Source: Octopus vulgaris
Lineage: Eukaryota
Assembly (NCBI GenBank): GCA_951406725.2
Contig: OX597817.1
Coordinates: 56,792,001-56,856,000 of the forward strand
Direction: 5' to 3'
Length of the DNA stretch: 64,000 nucleotides
Position numbers and translations under genes: made by a program. Below, in pieces: positions 5,148 to 48,690 of this stretch. A model generated the notes under the pieces. That model did not search any database, was not told the origin of the DNA, and saw only the letters and a program-made list of their open reading frames with translations. Each line of letters starts with the position of its first letter. Position 1 is the first letter of the stretch.

Positions 5148-5187
<40 letters not shown>

Positions 5188-5256
5188 TTTGAACATTATA
5201 CAAATATTCCTTTAAAAAAACTTTTCTTCTAATTTTTCTAAATTTAATTATTTAAT

Positions 5257-5304
5257 CGTTACAGTTGAAAAGGTCTCAAAATGACCGAAACCGGTACTGA
5301 AATG
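5257..5304 (+). ncRNA. Hammerhead motif (U3-A8 variant), copy 1 of a 210-bp tandem
   Basis: cguuaCAG-UUGAAAA-GGUC ucaaaau GACC-GAAA-CCGG-UA-CUGaaaug. Confidence 0.72.
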
Positions 5305-5347
5305 TTCTTTATAAAATTATTTTAGCATTTTCTATTTTGACTTGTTT

Positions 5348-5397
<50 letters not shown>

Positions 5398-5466
5398 TTT
5401 GAACACTATACAAATATTCCTTTAAAAAAACTTTTCTTCTAATTTTTCTAAACTTGATTATTTAAT

Positions 5467-5514
5467 CGTTACAGTTGAAAAGGTCTCAAAATGACCGAAA
5501 CCGGTACTGAAATG
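5467..5514 (+). ncRNA. Hammerhead motif (U3-A8 variant), copy 2
   Basis: Identical motif 210 bp downstream of copy 1. Confidence 0.72.
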
Positions 5515-5557
5515 TTCACTATAAAATTATTTTAGCATTTTCTATTTTGACTTGTTT

Positions 5558-5668
<111 letters not shown>

Positions 5669-32587: not shown

Positions 32588-33282
32588 TACTCTAGGCACA
32601 AGGACCGAAATTTGTGGGAAGGAGGGCCAGTCGATAAGATCGACGTCAGTACGTAACTGGTACTTAATTTATCAACCCTGAAAGGATAAAAAGCAAAGTC
32701 GACCTCGGCGGAATTTGAACTTAGAACGTAAAGACAGACAAAATACCTATTTCTATTTCTTTACTACCCACAAGGGGCTAAACACAGAGAGGACAAACAA
32801 GGATAGACAAACGGATTAAGTCGATTATATCGACCCCAGTTTGCAACTGGTACTTAATTTATCAACCCCGAAAGGACGAAAAGCAAAGTCGACCTCGGCG
32901 GAATTTGAACTCAGAACGTAACGGCAGACGAAATACATATTTTTTTACTACCCACAAGGGGCTAAAAACAGAGAGGACAAACAAGAACAGACAGACGGAT
33001 TAAGTCGATTATATCAACCCCAGTGCGTAACTGGTACTTATTTAATCGACCCCGAAAGGATGACAGGCAAAGTCGACCTCCGCAGAATTTGATCTCAGAA
33101 CTTAACGTCAGACGAAATACCTATTTCTTTACTACCCACAAGGGGCTAAACACAGAGGAGACAAACAAGGACAGACAAACGGATTAAGTCGATTATATCG
33201 ACCCCAGTGCGTAACTGGTACTTAATTTATCGACCCCGAAAGGATGAAAGGCAAAGTCAACCTCGGCGAAATTTGACCTCGC
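32588..33282 (-). repeat. SINE family B tandem array (four bodies, about 180-bp period)
   Basis: Repeated unit tttactacccacaaggggctaaacacagag...gacctcggcggaatttgaactcagaacgtaa. Further family B copies at 33317-33750, 35083-35290, 54448-54675, 55490-55655 and 60492-61275. Confidence 0.85.
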
Positions 33283-35866: not shown

Positions 35867-36646
35867 GATAGGTAGATATGTATATATACATACATGCATA
35901 CGTACATATATACCTACACACCATATATATATATATATATATATATGTGTATATATATATGTATATATATATAGTCGTTTTACCAATTTTGTGGATACTG
36001 TAGCATTTTCTTTCACCTCTCCCCTCATTACTGATTTCAAATATTTTTGGCCACTTTTGTCGGAATTCTAGTTCAAATTTTTTCCTCCCTGTTTAACAAA
36101 CGTAAACCTAGAAACCATTCTTCTAACTCCAGCTCGCTTTTCTTACACACTTGCATGCACATTTCTAACACCTTCCACCTTGCACTTACGTGCATCATCA
36201 CACACTCACACATGCCGCCCACCCCTTTCTCACCTGCACTCTTTCACACTACGCACTCACCCCGTTTATACCCAGCTATAGATGCACTCTCATACGTGCA
36301 TCTACACACCCATCCCGTCTACCCGTATTAACTGTTCCCATATGACTGCATTCCTGCCTGTCCAATTTCATCTTTTTGTTTGCCCTCTGCATCTTTCTAT
36401 ATATATATATATATATAATAGAAATATTAAAATAACTAAGTCTCTCTAAAAGAGAACAGCGGCAGCGTTCCCGGAAAATAATAGTTATCGCCATACTAAT
36501 ATGGCATTCTTATAAAAATAAGAAAAAAGCTGTCCGCTTATTAGCTCCATGAGGCCATCGCCTTAAGTTAGCTATTTGATACACAAACTGTATCCATATA
36601 ACCTTCGAACAAGGGAGGTCAGTCGCTCCACACTACTTGACCGGCA

Positions 36647-36688
36647 GCTACAGACGCGTTTCAGGGTATTGCCCCTTTTCAATGCAGC
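36647..36688 (-). ncRNA. Type I minimal hammerhead ribozyme, U3-A8 core variant
   Basis: Minus strand: GCUGCA-UUGAAAA-GGGG caaua CCCU-GAAA-CGCG-UC-UGUAGC. Stem I 6 bp, stem II 4 bp, palindromic CGCG in stem III, GUC cleavage triplet. Confidence 0.8.
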
Positions 36689-36950
36689 GTAGCCAGCCAG
36701 TAGGTGTCGCTTCCTAAATCTTTATTATGATTATAAAAATCTTACAGAGATAGTACATTACAATACAAAACATAATTACAAAAAGTTTACGTTGTTCGTT
36801 TGATATTTACATATGTTGATTATTGATTATGATACTAGACTTTACTTTTCTCCTTTTTTTTTAAAATTAAAAATGATTTTGGCCAGCTAGATATATCACA
36901 GTCAGGATTCTTACCCGACAGCCTAAGAGCCCAGAGACTATTTTCTCCCT

Positions 36951-39900
36951 TCATGATGACCAAGCAGGGTTACTCACACCCACCTTTTTTATCACATCCT
37001 TCCATCGATTCACATACTTTTTCTGTGTCAGGTTCCTCTTCTCTAAATCCATCTTGCTCTTTAGATGGTATCTGAAGTATTTTAACATACCATATCCAGA
37101 GACAAAGGTTCCTGACACCAAACCTTCCAATCTAGTTCTCCACACACACTCTTTCAGTACTGCCACCGTACAGTGAAAACAAGCCTCACCTTCCTTTGAG
37201 AGTCCAGCTGGCGGTATCATCTTTATTATAGAACCAGCCGATAGCTGTACTCGTCCCAGATGCGACAACACGTGTTCTACGTAACTTATTAAGCCTGACA
37301 GCTCCTGACAATGTACAAAAGCGTGCTGGACGGTTTCATCGTCCAACCCACATCTTGGACATGTCGGTGGCACTGACATTCCATGCCTATATAACTTATC
37401 GCGAACAGGTAGAGCATTCCTATAGCACTGCCAAGTCAGGGATTTTTGGTAATTGTCCAAATACCCCGGCTTGAAAGTCTTCTTAAACAGGTCGGATAGT
37501 TGATCCTCATCGAACCCCAGAGCCCCTCTTAGGACGTCGTCATTTTTTGCCTCTACCATCCTTCTATAAAATGTCGAGGTGGTATTCCCGCAGCCGGCTT
37601 TGCCTATCTTGTGGATCAGCCAGAGTGCCTGTCGGCACTCTTTCTGCCATAAAGTCAGGTTCCGTCTTTTAATGAAACCGGGTTTAAATCTCTCCATAGA
37701 GTCCGGTTGCGGGAAGAAATTATCTGCCAGCGGACTCCACACCTTATCACCTTCCAGGTGAAACCAGAGATGTCTCAGTCTCAGCGCATGCCTGCGCATC
37801 ATTAACCAAGGCATCCCCAGCCCACCCTTTAGTGGTTCCTGGCAACACACGGAGCGCCTTACAAGTGGCTTTCCTCCCTTCCACAAAAAGCGGAAAAGGA
37901 GTCGATCCAACTTGCTTAGCCACAAATCGGGGCAAGGCACGACAGTCAGGCGATAGGTGATTACAGATGCTATAAACACCTGTACCACCTCCGCCCTCCC
38001 TTTCAAGGAAAGATGCCTTCCGGACCACTCCCGAACAATGGCTTCTACCTTGGTCACTACCTCGCTCCAATTTTTCTCCGTCTGGGAGTCTGAACCAAAC
38101 CAAACTCCAAGCAATTTAACAGGACCATCTGTCCAGTGTCCAACAACACTGGACGATATCGGCTTGTTCCTCCAGGTGCCGAGGCGCAAACTAGTGGACT
38201 TGTCCTTGTTAACTTTTGCCCCAGCCACCGCTTCGTATCTTCGGAGAGCACCTTCTACACGAGTTAGTTGTGCTTCGTTGGACACGATGAAGGTGACGTC
38301 ATCCGCATACGCAGAAACAGACTTACCGCATCCGATTTCATTAGGATTGCATCTCACCGTCTCCAACTTCCGCAGCAATGGCTCAAGAGCCAAAACGTAC
38401 AGGAGAGGGGACAAGGGACATCCTTGACGAACTGAACGCTTAATCGAAAACGGTTCCGTTAAGTAACCGTTTATCTGGACTGTGGACTTGATACCGCTGT
38501 ACATAGCTGATATCCACCCGCGAAAGTCAGGACCTAGCCCAGCCGCTTCGAGAACCGTCGCCAGGTACTGATGATCTACCCTATCAAATGCTTTACTTTG
38601 GTCTAAATGGACCAATGCCCCTCCTTTGCCGGCTAATTGCCCAACCCTGTCTATAGTGTAGCGTAGAAGGTGAAGATTATCTTCGATCGACCTGCCTGGG
38701 ATTGCACATGTCTGTGCCTTTCCGACAAGTTTTTCCATGACGACCTTCAACCTTTCTGCTAACACCTTGGCCAAAATCTTTAACTCTACATTAAGTAGAG
38801 TTATGGGCCTATAATTACTAATATTATCCCCCTTGCTCGGGTCTTTCTGGATCAGCGTCACAACTCCCCGGCTCACAGAACTGGGAATCCTCCCATTCTG
38901 TTGCCAGTTTGCGTAGACGCTTGCCAGTATGTCCCCGAACAAGTCCGGCATACAACAATAAAACTCATAGGGCAGACCATCCAGTCCCGGCGACTTTTCC
39001 CGGGCGCATTCAGCCAAAACCCCTCTTACCTCCGCGGGAGTAATCGGTCCTTCACAGCGTTCCGCTCTGCTTGGCGAGAGCCGAGGCCCACCAGCTAGGA
39101 AGTTCTGTAAGTCCTCCCCTCGCTCGAGTGGATCGCCCTCCCCAAACAACCGAGCGAAATGCTGTTGAAAGACCTTCTGTATCTCCTCCTGTCCATAGAT
39201 TTTGCGTCCCTGTTCGTCAGTTAAAGACTTAATAGAGGACTTTTTGCCCTTCTGACTCTCCACACGACGTGCCCATCCGGCAACATTAATACCTTCTCGT
39301 TTCACTGCACGTAGCTTAGCTCTGACTCTACATCCTTCATGCTTGGCATTGAGGTGACGGTACAAGATCGTTCTCTCTGCTAACACTCTAGATGCACAGC
39401 CAGATCCCATTGCCTCGTCTAAGTTCTTAACTAAATCGCCCTCTATTCTAGTCCTATCTAAACTTAGCTGGTTGCTAAATCTAATGGACTCCAAACGGAT
39501 GGCTCTTTTGAGGGCGATCCACCATCTATTATTAATGATGGTTCCACATAATGCCCTCTGGACTAATTCCATAATCCGGTTACGGAAAGCTTCACAAGCC
39601 AAAATAGACTTGTTCATTTTCCAGTATCCGGGTCCCTGTCTATGGCATTTATCTACATGTACCTCACACGTCACTAATTTGTGATCCGTGTAAGGCACAA
39701 TACAAAATTGTGGACAGCTAATGCTATTCCTATCTCGTTCTTTAACAAATACCCTATCTATATACGATCTGCGTGAGCCGTCATTGTTACTCCACGTCCA
39801 CTGTGGAATGCTCGGCTCATCCATTCGAAACCGATCTACTAGATTAAAGCTCGTCAGTAGACCCTTAAGGCAAGGATTCCCCCTTCTATCAGACGAGCCC

Positions 39901-40349
39901 ACACTATCTATCCGCGCATCGATGATAGTGTTGAAATCCCCTACCAATACTACCGTTTTAGACGTCACTAGAAAGTGCTCCAAGTTCCGATAAAAACCAG
40001 TCTGCCTACCCTCATTAGGAGCATAAACAGCTACCAACCTGAAGGACTGCTTACTTACGTGAGTTACATCGAGGACAACCAGCCTACCTTCTGGGTCCAT
40101 AAAGACAGTACTTACCTGTAAGTCCAAGTTCTTCCTGATAAGGACTGCCACGCCTGCACTTCCTCCTCGGCTAGGAGAAATAAATTTCTCGTAACCATTG
40201 AGAAGATGCGAGAACGCTTGGGTTCCTCTCATCTTGGACTCGGTGACAATGGCTACATCTATTCTGTGTGTCCTGAGGTCGTCCAGCAAGCAAGCCTGTT
40301 TCCATTTCGACCCCATTCCACGCACATTTATACAGCCCAACTTAATCAT
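36951..40349 (-). CDS. LINE ORF2: APE endonuclease + reverse transcriptase + C-terminal zinc finger (1132 aa)
   Basis: APE motifs INVRG, GDFN, SYIDR, TDH and the linker GPGYWKMN. RT motifs SPGLDG, NYRPITLLN, DQSKAFDRVDH, RQGCPLSP, YADD. Zinc finger CPRC-x8-H-x4-C. Confidence 0.97.
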   Translation of the reverse strand: MIKLGCINVRGMGSKWKQACLLDDLRTHRIDVAIVTESKMRGTQAFSHLLNGYEKFISPSRGGSAGVAVLIRKNLDLQVSTVFMDPEGRLVVLDVTHVSKQSFRLVAVYAPNEGRQTGFYRNLEHFLVTSKTVVLVGDFNTIIDARIDSVGSSDRRGNPCLKGLLTSFNLVDRFRMDEPSIPQWTWSNNDGSRRSYIDRVFVKERDRNSISCPQFCIVPYTDHKLVTCEVHVDKCHRQGPGYWKMNKSILACEAFRNRIMELVQRALCGTIINNRWWIALKRAIRLESIRFSNQLSLDRTRIEGDLVKNLDEAMGSGCASRVLAERTILYRHLNAKHEGCRVRAKLRAVKREGINVAGWARRVESQKGKKSSIKSLTDEQGRKIYGQEEIQKVFQQHFARLFGEGDPLERGEDLQNFLAGGPRLSPSRAERCEGPITPAEVRGVLAECAREKSPGLDGLPYEFYCCMPDLFGDILASVYANWQQNGRIPSSVSRGVVTLIQKDPSKGDNISNYRPITLLNVELKILAKVLAERLKVVMEKLVGKAQTCAIPGRSIEDNLHLLRYTIDRVGQLAGKGGALVHLDQSKAFDRVDHQYLATVLEAAGLGPDFRGWISAMYSGIKSTVQINGYLTEPFSIKRSVRQGCPLSPLLYVLALEPLLRKLETVRCNPNEIGCGKSVSAYADDVTFIVSNEAQLTRVEGALRRYEAVAGAKVNKDKSTSLRLGTWRNKPISSSVVGHWTDGPVKLLGVWFGSDSQTEKNWSEVVTKVEAIVREWSGRHLSLKGRAEVVQVFIASVITYRLTVVPCPDLWLSKLDRLLFRFLWKGGKPLVRRSVCCQEPLKGGLGMPWLMMRRHALRLRHLWFHLEGDKVWSPLADNFFPQPDSMERFKPGFIKRRNLTLWQKECRQALWLIHKIGKAGCGNTTSTFYRRMVEAKNDDVLRGALGFDEDQLSDLFKKTFKPGYLDNYQKSLTWQCYRNALPVRDKLYRHGMSVPPTCPRCGLDDETVQHAFVHCQELSGLISYVEHVLSHLGRVQLSAGSIIKMIPPAGLSKEGEACFHCTVAVLKECVWRTRLEGLVSGTFVSGYGMLKYFRYHLKSKMDLEKRNLTQKKYVNRWKDVIKKVGVSNPAWSS

Positions 40350-40373
40350 CGATGAATGAAGAAAGTTTGTTAC

Positions 40374-41855
40374 TTACGGTTGTGAGAGGGAGCATGGCAG
40401 CTTTTGTCTGCCTGCCTCCCCCACACTCTCCGTTGTTGCTGGGCATTTAATCGGCGTTGCCACCGGGCTCTGGGATGGAGTGGCTGCCGGGCTAATATTC
40501 AATTTTCCAGCTATCACCTCTTGTGTGACATCTTTAATCAGGTTGTCCCTCACGTGTAGTTGGAAGAGTCTCTCCTTCCATTCCTCCTCTCCAACCTTCG
40601 CATACCTCCAATCCGGGTTTTTTTCCGATGATTTGAAACATTTTATGTTTGGTTTCGCCTTTATGTACCAAACTACTCTCTCGTTTTTTGTGTTATAAGC
40701 AATGCACCTATCGGTTTTTTTGAATCCTTTTAAAGTTGGGGGCTGGGGTTTAATGAAATGCTGGCCTACAAAAGTAGTGCCAGCGGGGTGGGATTGGATA
40801 ATTTTTTTGTGTTGTTCTTCTGCGTTTGTTTTTCTTTTTGTTTGGGGTGGGGAGTCCGGGGTATTGGATTTCTTCCTTTTGTTGGTTACAGTCGTATATT
40901 CCATTACTTCCAGTTCTTTTCCATTTGATAAAATATTTTCCACCTCGTTTTCGTTTTCGCTTTGTTTTCCATTCATTTTCTTTTCCTCCTTTTGACTTTC
41001 ATTTTGCTTTTTCCGGGTATTCTCTTTAGTTGTTGCTGTGATGTCTGCTTTGTTCTCCACAGCGGTTTGAATGGGGGCATTAACGGGTTTTTTCTTTTTG
41101 CACTCTGAGCGGACGTGACCCTTCTGCCCACATTTGAAACATCTGGGCCTACGTCCCTCAACCGATACCCGCGCAGTGTGTCCATCCCCCACGAAGACCC
41201 TGTCTGGCAAACTCTCCAGCGTTGCATTGTCAGCTTGAACGATCATTTCAAGCTGCTGACCTTTCCAAAATTTTGCCTCTTTCATCCTCATGTTTAAAAT
41301 GTTTAATTTCTCTTCTACGTCGAATACGACCGCTGTTGCTGCCCACATTACATCGTAACCTGTTGGTATATCCTCTACTGTTATCTTAGCTGTTCTGCGC
41401 CCTAAGTACGTGGGCAGCAACAGGATGTCTGCACTCTTCAACGTTTGAGTTGAAATTTCCTTCGCTATGCTAGCCGACTCGAAATGCGCTTCAATAGTAG
41501 CGCTTCTCACTCCTCGGCCAACATAGCGAACCTTGTTCCAAATTGGTGCCATGCACCGTTCTACCAATTCATTTCTTACATCTGCAATCCTTTTTTCCTT
41601 AATATTATATACCTTATAAATTACCGTCTTCTCACGGATTGCTTGTAAGGTGTCAGGGGGCGGTATTATTCTCGTTTCTTCTCCATTCCTTTGTATGAAC
41701 TTTCTGAACTTGAAGAGATCCTCCATTGTTACTTCCAGTTCTATAACATTGCCTCCAACGGCTTCCGAAAAACTTTGTTTCTCCTTTGTATCCTTTTGCT
41801 TTATAACTTCTCCCATCTCGGGAAAATCAGAATTTGACGTTAAGTCAAGATCCAT
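40374..41855 (-). CDS. LINE ORF1 (gag-like nucleic-acid chaperone, about 493 aa)
   Basis: CCHC knuckle CFKCGQKGHVRSEC followed by a basic low-complexity region. First ATG at 41855; the track start at 41906 is a GTG. Confidence 0.88.
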   Translation of the reverse strand: MDLDLTSNSDFPEMGEVIKQKDTKEKQSFSEAVGGNVIELEVTMEDLFKFRKFIQRNGEETRIIPPPDTLQAIREKTVIYKVYNIKEKRIADVRNELVERCMAPIWNKVRYVGRGVRSATIEAHFESASIAKEISTQTLKSADILLLPTYLGRRTAKITVEDIPTGYDVMWAATAVVFDVEEKLNILNMRMKEAKFWKGQQLEMIVQADNATLESLPDRVFVGDGHTARVSVEGRRPRCFKCGQKGHVRSECKKKKPVNAPIQTAVENKADITATTKENTRKKQNESQKEEKKMNGKQSENENEVENILSNGKELEVMEYTTVTNKRKKSNTPDSPPQTKRKTNAEEQHKKIIQSHPAGTTFVGQHFIKPQPPTLKGFKKTDRCIAYNTKNERVVWYIKAKPNIKCFKSSEKNPDWRYAKVGEEEWKERLFQLHVRDNLIKDVTQEVIAGKLNISPAATPSQSPVATPIKCPATTESVGEAGRQKLPCSLSQP

Positions 41856-42383
41856 AATAAAATGCAAGTGACTTGTCACAAGAGACAAGATAAAAATTAA
41901 ATCCACACTGAATTAAAGTTCATATATAAAAAGAAATTTTCTACCCCGAAGGGCGAAAATTACTTTGTTTCACAAGTTAATACTCCAAAAATTGTACGTG
42001 TAAATCCAGAACAGAACGAACTAACATAACAGCTTACAGCGTAAAATAATCCGACGTAATCCAAGGAAAAATCAGTAGGTGTCGCTTCCGACAATCTCTG
42101 TTCGATGGTTTTATTTACCTAGTTTCGGTGGAATACATCCACTTGTTTTCAATAATAGAAATATTAAAATAACTAAGTCTCTCTAAAAGAGAACAGCGGC
42201 AGCGTTCCCGGAAAATAATAGTTATCGCCATACTAATATGGCATTCTTATAAAAATAAGAAAAAAGCTGTCCGCTTATTAGCTCCATGAGGCCATCGCCT
42301 TAAGTTAGCTATTTGATACACAAACTGTATCCATATAACCTTCGAACAAGGGAGGTCAGTCGCTCCACACTACTTGACCGGCA

Positions 42384-42425
42384 GCTACAGACGCGTTTCA
42401 GGGTATTGCCCCTTTTCAATGCAGC
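42384..42425 (-). ncRNA. Type I minimal hammerhead ribozyme, second copy
   Basis: Identical to 36647-36688. Confidence 0.8.
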
Positions 42426-42640
42426 GTAGCCAGCCAGTAGGTGTCGCTTCCGACAATCTCTGTTCGATGGTTTTATTTACCTAGTTTCGGTGGAATACAT
42501 CCACTTGTTTTCAATAATAGAAATATTAAAATAACTAAGTCTCTCTAAAAGAGAACAGCGGCAGCGTTCCCGGAAAATAATAGTTATCGCCATACTAATA
42601 TGGCATTCTTATAAAAATACACGCATAAACATATACATAC

Positions 42641-48644: not shown

Positions 48645-48690
48645 GACACCTGATGAAGGCTGGAGAGTATATCCGCCGAAACGTTGTGTT
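48645..48690 (+). ncRNA. Minimal hammerhead motif of Penelope-like terminal repeat type
   Basis: GACAC-CUGAUGA-a-GGCuGGA gaguaua UCCGCC-GAAA-CG-UU-GUGUU. A truncated reverse relative lies near 50830-50900. Confidence 0.72.

Follow-up and report, generated by a model that had tools for sequence, protein, structure and literature searches.

A Tx1-like LINE of Octopus vulgaris at one base of a hammerhead-bearing tandem repeat, with sister lineages at U1 and U2 genes

Structure of the Locus

The stretch analysed here (hereafter "the window") comprises 64,000 nt of Octopus vulgaris DNA (GenBank assembly GCA_951406725.2, contig OX597817.1, positions 56,792,001 to 56,856,000) and contains, on its minus strand, a full-length long interspersed nuclear element (LINE) inserted in a 362-bp tandem repeat with a predicted type I hammerhead ribozyme in each unit. 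The LINE belongs to a target-specific family that inserts, with a 17-bp target site duplication (TSD), at one base of this Penelope-style hammerhead retrozyme and in the same strand as the hammerhead; sister lineages insert at the corresponding position in other retrozyme families and at the first base (+1) of the small nuclear RNA (snRNA) genes U1 and U2. The features of the locus are as follows.

36415..36714, minus strand: downstream repeat unit, unit positions 1-300, ending in a (TA)n tract (sequence comparison)
36627..36710, minus strand: downstream type I hammerhead, core at 36682, predicted cut after 36653 (fold)
36698..36714, minus strand: 17-bp TSD, 3′ copy, repeat positions +1 to +17 (sequence)
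36715..42072, minus strand: Tx1-like LINE, full length, 5358 bp, without poly(A) tail (sequence and junctions)
36721..36726, minus strand: AATAAA, 6 bases before the LINE 3′ end, no A tail after it (sequence)
36951..40349, minus strand: open reading frame 2 (ORF2), 1132 aa, APE endonuclease, reverse transcriptase and zf-RVT (ORF translation and Pfam)
40374..41855, minus strand: ORF1, 493 aa, one CCHC zinc knuckle (ORF translation and Pfam)
42073..42089, minus strand: 17-bp TSD, 5′ copy and putative RNA head, with 42089 as the putative transcription start
42090..42451, minus strand: complete upstream 362-bp repeat unit (sequence comparison)
42136..42149, minus strand: snRNA-promoter-like motif resembling a proximal sequence element (PSE), −57 from the LINE junction (matrix scan, rank 1 of 698)
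42364..42447, minus strand: upstream type I hammerhead, core at 42419, predicted cut after 42390 (fold)
42452..42619, minus strand: 5′-truncated repeat unit, positions 195-362 (sequence comparison)
42498..42511, minus strand: second PSE-like motif copy, −57 from the start of the complete unit (identical repeat copy)

The TSDs of the window LINE are perfect, the bases beyond each differ on both sides, and ORF1 and ORF2 are both open; the 5358-bp length, the two open ORFs and the perfect 17-bp TSD given in the original prediction, which was made from the DNA letters alone, were confirmed to the base. Pfam recognised Exo_endo_phos, RVT_1 and zf-RVT in ORF2, and residues 238-254 of ORF1 match PF00098 (23.1 bits; cut-off 20.8), a CCHC knuckle in ORF1 being a feature of the Tx1 clade. 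The best solved relative of ORF2 is L1 ORF2p (E = 3e-66; R2 reaches only 8e-23), and the closest named homologue among those listed comes from Argonauta hians (64% across part of ORF2). The name Tx1 appears in none of the 120 listed ORF2 homologues and in none of the nine clusters examined; we therefore call the element Tx1-like, a label taken from domain architecture rather than from a tree that includes named families. A 3′ poly(A) or simple-repeat tail is common in the L1 group, and an A tail was found at none of the 30 LINE 3′ junctions read. The arrangement of R2-type self-release was not found either: both ribozymes lie in the target DNA, outside the TSDs, and not in the LINE 5′ end. Eleven near-identical relatives in Patella caerulea (cluster P0065) carry locus tags that are close neighbours, which points to a tandem cluster, possibly a site-specific one, in this limpet.

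Target Specificity of the Window Lineage

In the 2.8-Gb genome, all 21 of the 3′ ends assigned to the window lineage lie at the same 17-mer, of which 1134 exact empty unit junctions were counted genome-wide (control, 0). Thirty loci were cut for the LINE 3′ end, and 20 of these run on into the 17-mer (17 continuing into the repeat and three into the next LINE of a five-copy array), as does one further copy of 69 bp; exact genome-wide matches to the 3′ end of the lineage number 19, all within the 21. At the other end, each of the 16 intact 5′ ends (≥95.5% identity) is preceded by the 17-mer. This tabulation of 3′ flanks had been set beforehand as the test of whether the LINE family targets the hammerhead repeat, and the junctions at the 17-mer, repeated at both ends, bear that proposal out. 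Four 5′-truncated copies end at the same base, two of them (L123 and L119b) with TSDs of their own, and the arrays differ from locus to locus in structure and private variants, which together indicate independent insertions. L114 and L124 may be exceptions that were moved by the repeat's own machinery. Both ORFs are open in seven of the 16 full-length copies. One internal piece of the L156 locus (L158) was kept out of all counts; 11 lower LINE matches have no locus of their own, and one of these (C11:33580839) was read within L119.

Two observations concern individual arrays. At L114:6943-7503 and L124:3763-5126, the LINE 3′ end is followed by a downstream unit whose variants set it apart from the remaining array, possibly through co-mobilisation by the repeat machinery, recombination or assembly noise. 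At L091-L093 (G000:C2:73.04-73.07 Mb; the C2 array), five tandem LINE copies are separated by bare 17-mers or by one unit, the first copy being 5′-truncated and associated with a small target deletion.

The 362-bp Repeat and Its Hammerhead

No differences separate the copies of the 362-bp unit in the window (300 bp to the left of the LINE, 362 and 168 bp to its right). Each unit folds as a type I hammerhead in which stem I is long, stem II has 4 bp and stem III is minimal (ACGCGU), and the GAAA of the core and an NUH triplet are both present. Recomputation placed the predicted C17 at 42390 and 36653, 317 and 62 nt from the LINE and 5737 nt from cut to cut, as originally proposed. The proposal of a type I hammerhead on the LINE coding strand is upheld by the fold; the core is not canonical (UUGAAAA in place of CUGANGA, with U3:A8 replacing C3:G8), and an Rfam search of 42050-42630 gave no hammerhead family at E ≤ 10. 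Across the whole window, the 150 listed of 344 Rfam matches held only microsatellite-driven miRNA matches; the hammerhead call comes from the fold and from comparison across families. Among 50 hammerhead motifs found beside LINE ends, which are related copies and not 50 independent events, positions 3 and 8 always pair (C-G in 20, U-A in 19 and U-G in 11), and stem III is self-complementary in 46, with seven different sequences; the finder matched 15 of 2000 control pieces. These two regularities argue that the flanking motifs are selected putative ribozymes that probably act as dimers.

The repeat is dispersed (190 matches in 40 scored of 1175 candidates), in arrays that are short, 5′-truncated, often provided with an inverted arm and terminated near unit position 237 or 300, mostly at (TA)n. 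Dispersed tandem units within 150-450 bp, each with a type I hammerhead, are the hallmarks of retrozymes not bounded by long terminal repeats (non-LTR retrozymes; PMC7229834; bioRxiv 10.64898/2026.07.22.740005), and the inverted 5′-truncated arms together with (TA)n insertion follow the pattern described for the pseudo-LTRs (pLTRs) of Penelope-like elements (PMC8557442). A hammerhead-like string at 42152/42514 was rejected because it lacks stem I and overlaps the promoter-like motif. Repeat arms starting near the cut site were not counted: of 64 arms, six fell in the range 57-68, where 2.3 were expected, and not one at 63, the range having been chosen post hoc.

Elsewhere in the window, a 210-bp tandem at 5148-5604 (2.2 copies), with a UUGAAAA-core hammerhead-like motif on the plus strand at 5265 and 5475, is probably a second retrozyme family, while single or degenerate hammerhead-like motifs at 48650 (plus strand), 14515 (minus strand) and about 43450 (plus strand) are likely relics of Penelope-type repeats. 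A 184-bp tandem repeat at 32629-33280 has 3.5 copies, and similar sequence flanks L106 and L191.

Sister Lineages and Their Targets

The remaining 10 of the 30 loci belong to a sister lineage (U1-type), one copy of which adjoins a whole U1 gene identified by Rfam; seven of the nine other 3′ flanks start with ATAC, the start of U1, so that the off-target sites of this lineage resemble its own +1. Lineages at a greater distance (82-85% DNA identity) adjoin hammerhead repeats of other kinds, in which the cut site is 56-67 nt downstream of the junction. Hammerheads were present in 16 of 29 flanks obtained with the family B query and 17 of 30 with the C query; the D query was loose (three of the 19 flanks fetched from 43 matches, L106 having been counted already among earlier loci). 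The C query also returned five copies at U2 +1, three junctions into the 5′ end of another LINE, and three more hammerhead-like flanks below threshold. The B, C, D and U2 targets all start with ATC.

In a midpoint-rooted tree of 83 of the 89 3′ regions (L030, L142, L145, L147, L153 and L177 were too short), the window lineage falls inside the U1-type lineage and the U2 copies fall inside family C, indicating that targets were switched at least twice recently. DNA identity of the APE domain across these two switches is 97.1% and 98.0%, and the window target shares almost nothing with U1 +1 despite the first of these values. The APE loop before the catalytic Asp is a determinant of specificity; it is the same in 12 of the 13 copies read, the U2 copy differing by one residue.

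At L094-L099 (G000:C18:49.00-49.06 Mb), LINEs of several ages, 66-93% identical to the window copy, are piled up at a U1 gene and separated by U1 17-mers, and L160, L182, L184, L189 and L190 are more distant LINE families with the same junctions, suggesting that the habit may be old in the clade. At L142, L145 and L147, the 3′ ends are followed by apparent antisense sequence of the same LINE clade, and the 3′ flank of L144 may hold a further hammerhead-like repeat below the finder threshold.

A Promoter-Like Motif Upstream of the Targets

A sequence motif near −57 is common to all targets; neither this motif nor the U1 and U2 targets had been part of the original prediction. An open search of 12 U1, U2 and U5 upstream regions found ATCAGT at −56 to −60 only, in 11 of them; the twelfth has a variant that differs by one base. 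A matrix derived from no other sequences than these 12 regions placed the −57 site of the window unit first of 698, and in 23 scans of target flanks the site at −57 to −60 ranked first in 18. The motif stands at −57 in 13 of the 16 full-length copies, the other three being internal tandem copies. Its position matches that of the PSE, which lies about 60 bp upstream in vertebrates (PMC4494074), and a newt hammerhead satellite has been reported to use an snRNA promoter (PMC2220036); the retrozyme unit may thus carry a putative snRNA-type promoter. The ATCAGT motif was present in none of seven U6 upstream regions, several of which are pseudogene-like, and no LINE insertion was seen at the five U5 starts inspected. 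Tandem U6-like genes at L239 and L240 (G000:C1:139.42 Mb) have the octamer ATGCAAAT upstream and lack the ATCAGT motif.

Ends of the LINE RNA

The 5′ end of one sister-lineage copy (L109), inserted at a non-U1 site, reads U1 +1 to +17, and all four 5′ ends read at U2 consist of the U2 14-mer, a 14-nt retrozyme head from the retrozyme junction, and then the LINE; these four heads may share descent from one event. L109 itself is part of an snRNA cluster and has a U2 gene on each side, in opposite orientation. Heads of 14-17 nt that begin exactly at the old junction suggest that LINE RNA probably starts at a borrowed promoter rather than at an upstream ribozyme cut, so that the idea that the LINE borrows the transcription of the repeat is probably correct. 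The same heads speak against the further proposal that the upstream ribozyme sets the 5′ end, as do two other features: upstream units retain variants private to their array at distances of 92, 118 and 203 nt from the junction, implying that no 317-nt leader was copied, and an intact upstream ribozyme is missing in eight of the 16 full-length copies, including five of the seven with both ORFs open. Bracketing of the LINE by two ribozymes accordingly describes the window locus and is not a trait of the family, and the defined RNA of 5737 nt, or its circle, is not supported.

At the 3′ end, the tail-less junction implies a read-through template, from which a ribozyme could remove the distal part. 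At the 3′ junction of a family C LINE in L189, the LINE runs into 58 nt of retrozyme that start at +1 and stop precisely at C17, where another LINE joins with no overlap, as would be expected from a template jump onto hammerhead-cut RNA; the RNA behind this single case could be a retrozyme leader instead of LINE read-through. A transcript from 42089 would contain one predicted ribozyme and may need a partner in trans. With this one footprint, trimming of the LINE 3′ end by the downstream hammerhead is plausible, though we stop short of calling it probable.

Proposed Mechanism and Alternative Explanations

We consider it moderately probable that the window element is a young Tx1-like LINE and that its clade homes to the first base of genes whose promoters are of the snRNA type, capturing the promoter and acquiring target-derived RNA ends. 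The upstream promoter would start transcription at the TSD, giving LINE RNA with a 14-17-nt target head; transcription would continue past the 3′ end, which has no tail, and into the target, whose hammerhead, 62 nt further on, may trim the RNA (the least certain step); and a weakly specific APE nick, together with pairing of the target-derived ends, would return daughters to the same target family. Rare jumps would found a new lineage only when landing at another such +1, which would explain why every successful switch seen ends at one. A bolder form of this account, in which the clade is retargeted by RNA flanks and not by its endonuclease, with the repeat supplying both promoter (5′ head) and hammerhead (3′ end), both ends guiding insertion, and near-identical enzymes having moved among retrozymes, U1 and U2, is offered tentatively, as a possibility that we rather doubt.

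Several points weigh against homing to promoter starts. The older lineages are much looser, as the B, C and D counts of hammerhead flanks given above demonstrate, and 11 APE substitutions between the window copy and the U1-headed copy could change specificity. The window motif departs from the ATCAGTG core and is weak (6.4 bits); the 23 flank scans cover related sequences, the motif ranked second in three family B scans and 16th in one family D scan, it stands at −50 in L221, and the three internal tandem copies lack it at −57. No off-target full-length copy of the window lineage was seen, the heads being known from its sisters only; the start and end positions of the LINE RNA are predicted from genomic sequence; U1 and U2 heads on Tx1 families have also been explained by template jumps (PMC4494074). 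The order of insertion gives mixed evidence, the C2 array and L190 fitting the promoter side and the U1 pile-up the gene side.

An ordinary sequence-specific Tx1 element, in which the endonuclease alone reads the target, the LINE uses its own promoter and the ribozyme is incidental, would agree with the attribution of Tx1 target choice mainly to the endonuclease (PMC4494074), with the ATC start shared by the B, C, D and U2 targets, and with the tandem insertions that have LINE sequence as one flank. We nevertheless regard this explanation as unlikely, since it leaves unaccounted for two almost unlike targets (the window target and U1 +1) of nearly identical enzymes, repeated switches that all end at +1 of motif-bearing promoters, and heads that start at the junction. 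If the integration complex were instead tethered by SNAPc or open promoter chromatin, much as Ty3 is tethered by TFIIIB, position and not sequence would select the site; the constant spacing of −56 to −60 across unrelated targets would follow directly, and the five-copy C2 array and L190/L217 could be read as repeated promoter-side insertion. Tethering alone is quite unlikely, however, because all 21 window-lineage copies lie in one repeat family despite the availability of U1, U2, U5 and other retrozyme promoters, the five U5 starts being free of insertions, and because the U1 pile-up has a decayed TSD at its 5′ side and perfect ones at its 3′ side, which suggests insertion away from the promoter.

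The model of the original prediction, in which two ribozymes cut both RNA ends, has in its favour the geometry of the window locus, where read-through from the upstream unit could yield such an RNA, and the retrozyme monomers and circles established in mussel (PMC7229834); we judge it very unlikely in light of the frequent loss of the upstream ribozyme, the missing leader and the sister-lineage heads that start at +1. A ribozyme-cut 5′ end, moreover, carries no cap and would be poorly translated, and no array with a repeating period of 5737 bp was found, a single step of 5735 bp occurring in the C2 array only. Hitchhiking, in which a single composite of LINE and retrozyme would have been carried to new sites by the Penelope-type machinery of the repeat, might apply to L114 and L124, the downstream units of which have deviant variants and end at the usual termini of the repeat; as a general route it is largely refuted, and highly improbable, given array structures and private variants that differ at every locus, truncated copies with their own TSDs (L123 and L119b), and sister lineages in unrelated repeats and snRNA genes.

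Homing to the +1 of snRNA-type promoters would add a target class (hammerhead retrozymes) and a positional rule to the biology of site-specific LINEs. Nature offers here pairs of endonucleases that are 97-98% identical and have unrelated targets, and both ORFs are open in seven copies; whether it is the enzyme, the RNA flank or a host factor that changes the target of an APE retrotransposon, an old question, can therefore be tested directly. The findings also give a lead on the promoter of invertebrate retrozymes and are relevant to retargetable gene insertion. Should retargeting by RNA flanks prove true, the element would be a natural RNA-programmed site-specific APE retrotransposon and a parasite of a ribozyme-bearing parasite.

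Comparison with Known Systems

Our literature searches on Tx1 elements with hammerheads, with Penelope/pLTR and with U1 start sites, on SNAPc targeting and on read-through retargeting brought up no publication of such a case, Repbase Reports and most subscription journals, where such targets may be annotated, lying outside the search. Keno inserts inside U2 and not at +1. Tx1 families are known to target snRNA genes, satellites and other transposons, some with U1/U2 heads (PMC4494074; PMC4640811; PMC8869645), and Tx1L in Tx1D, Keno in U2 and Tx1-Mar in Mariner-N4_AMi (PMC4494074) resemble the present family in being APE-reverse transcriptase LINEs with a TSD, a multicopy target and tandem insertion, with U1/U2 heads in some. 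Here, in contrast, the target is a hammerhead retrozyme, insertion occurs at the first base of the repeats, U1 and U2, and near-identical lineages use unrelated targets that share only promoter position. R2 carries a hepatitis delta virus-like ribozyme. This 5′ ribozyme is its own, and its endonuclease is restriction-like, whereas the ribozyme here is the target's and lies downstream; the dependence on the target's transcription (PMC4494074) is alike, as is the possibility that target-derived ends aid specific insertion. Dada DNA transposons and Utopia likewise target U1, U6 or U2 snRNA genes but have different enzymes, with specificity attributed to primary sequence within the genes (PMC8869645; PMC4640811).

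On the side of the repeat, newt satellite 2 is a hammerhead tandem repeat with a reported snRNA-type RNA polymerase II promoter, and the passage of PMC2220036 that cites this work mentions no targeting LINE; the promoter proposed here is read from sequence only. Metazoan non-LTR retrozymes and Penelope pLTR derivatives (PMC7229834; bioRxiv 10.64898/2026.07.22.740005; PMC8557442) share with the 362-bp repeat tandem units with one type I hammerhead each, inverted 5′-truncated arms and (TA)n ends; the window repeat differs from them in its U3:A8 core, in the snRNA-promoter-like motif of each unit, and in having a dedicated parasitic LINE.

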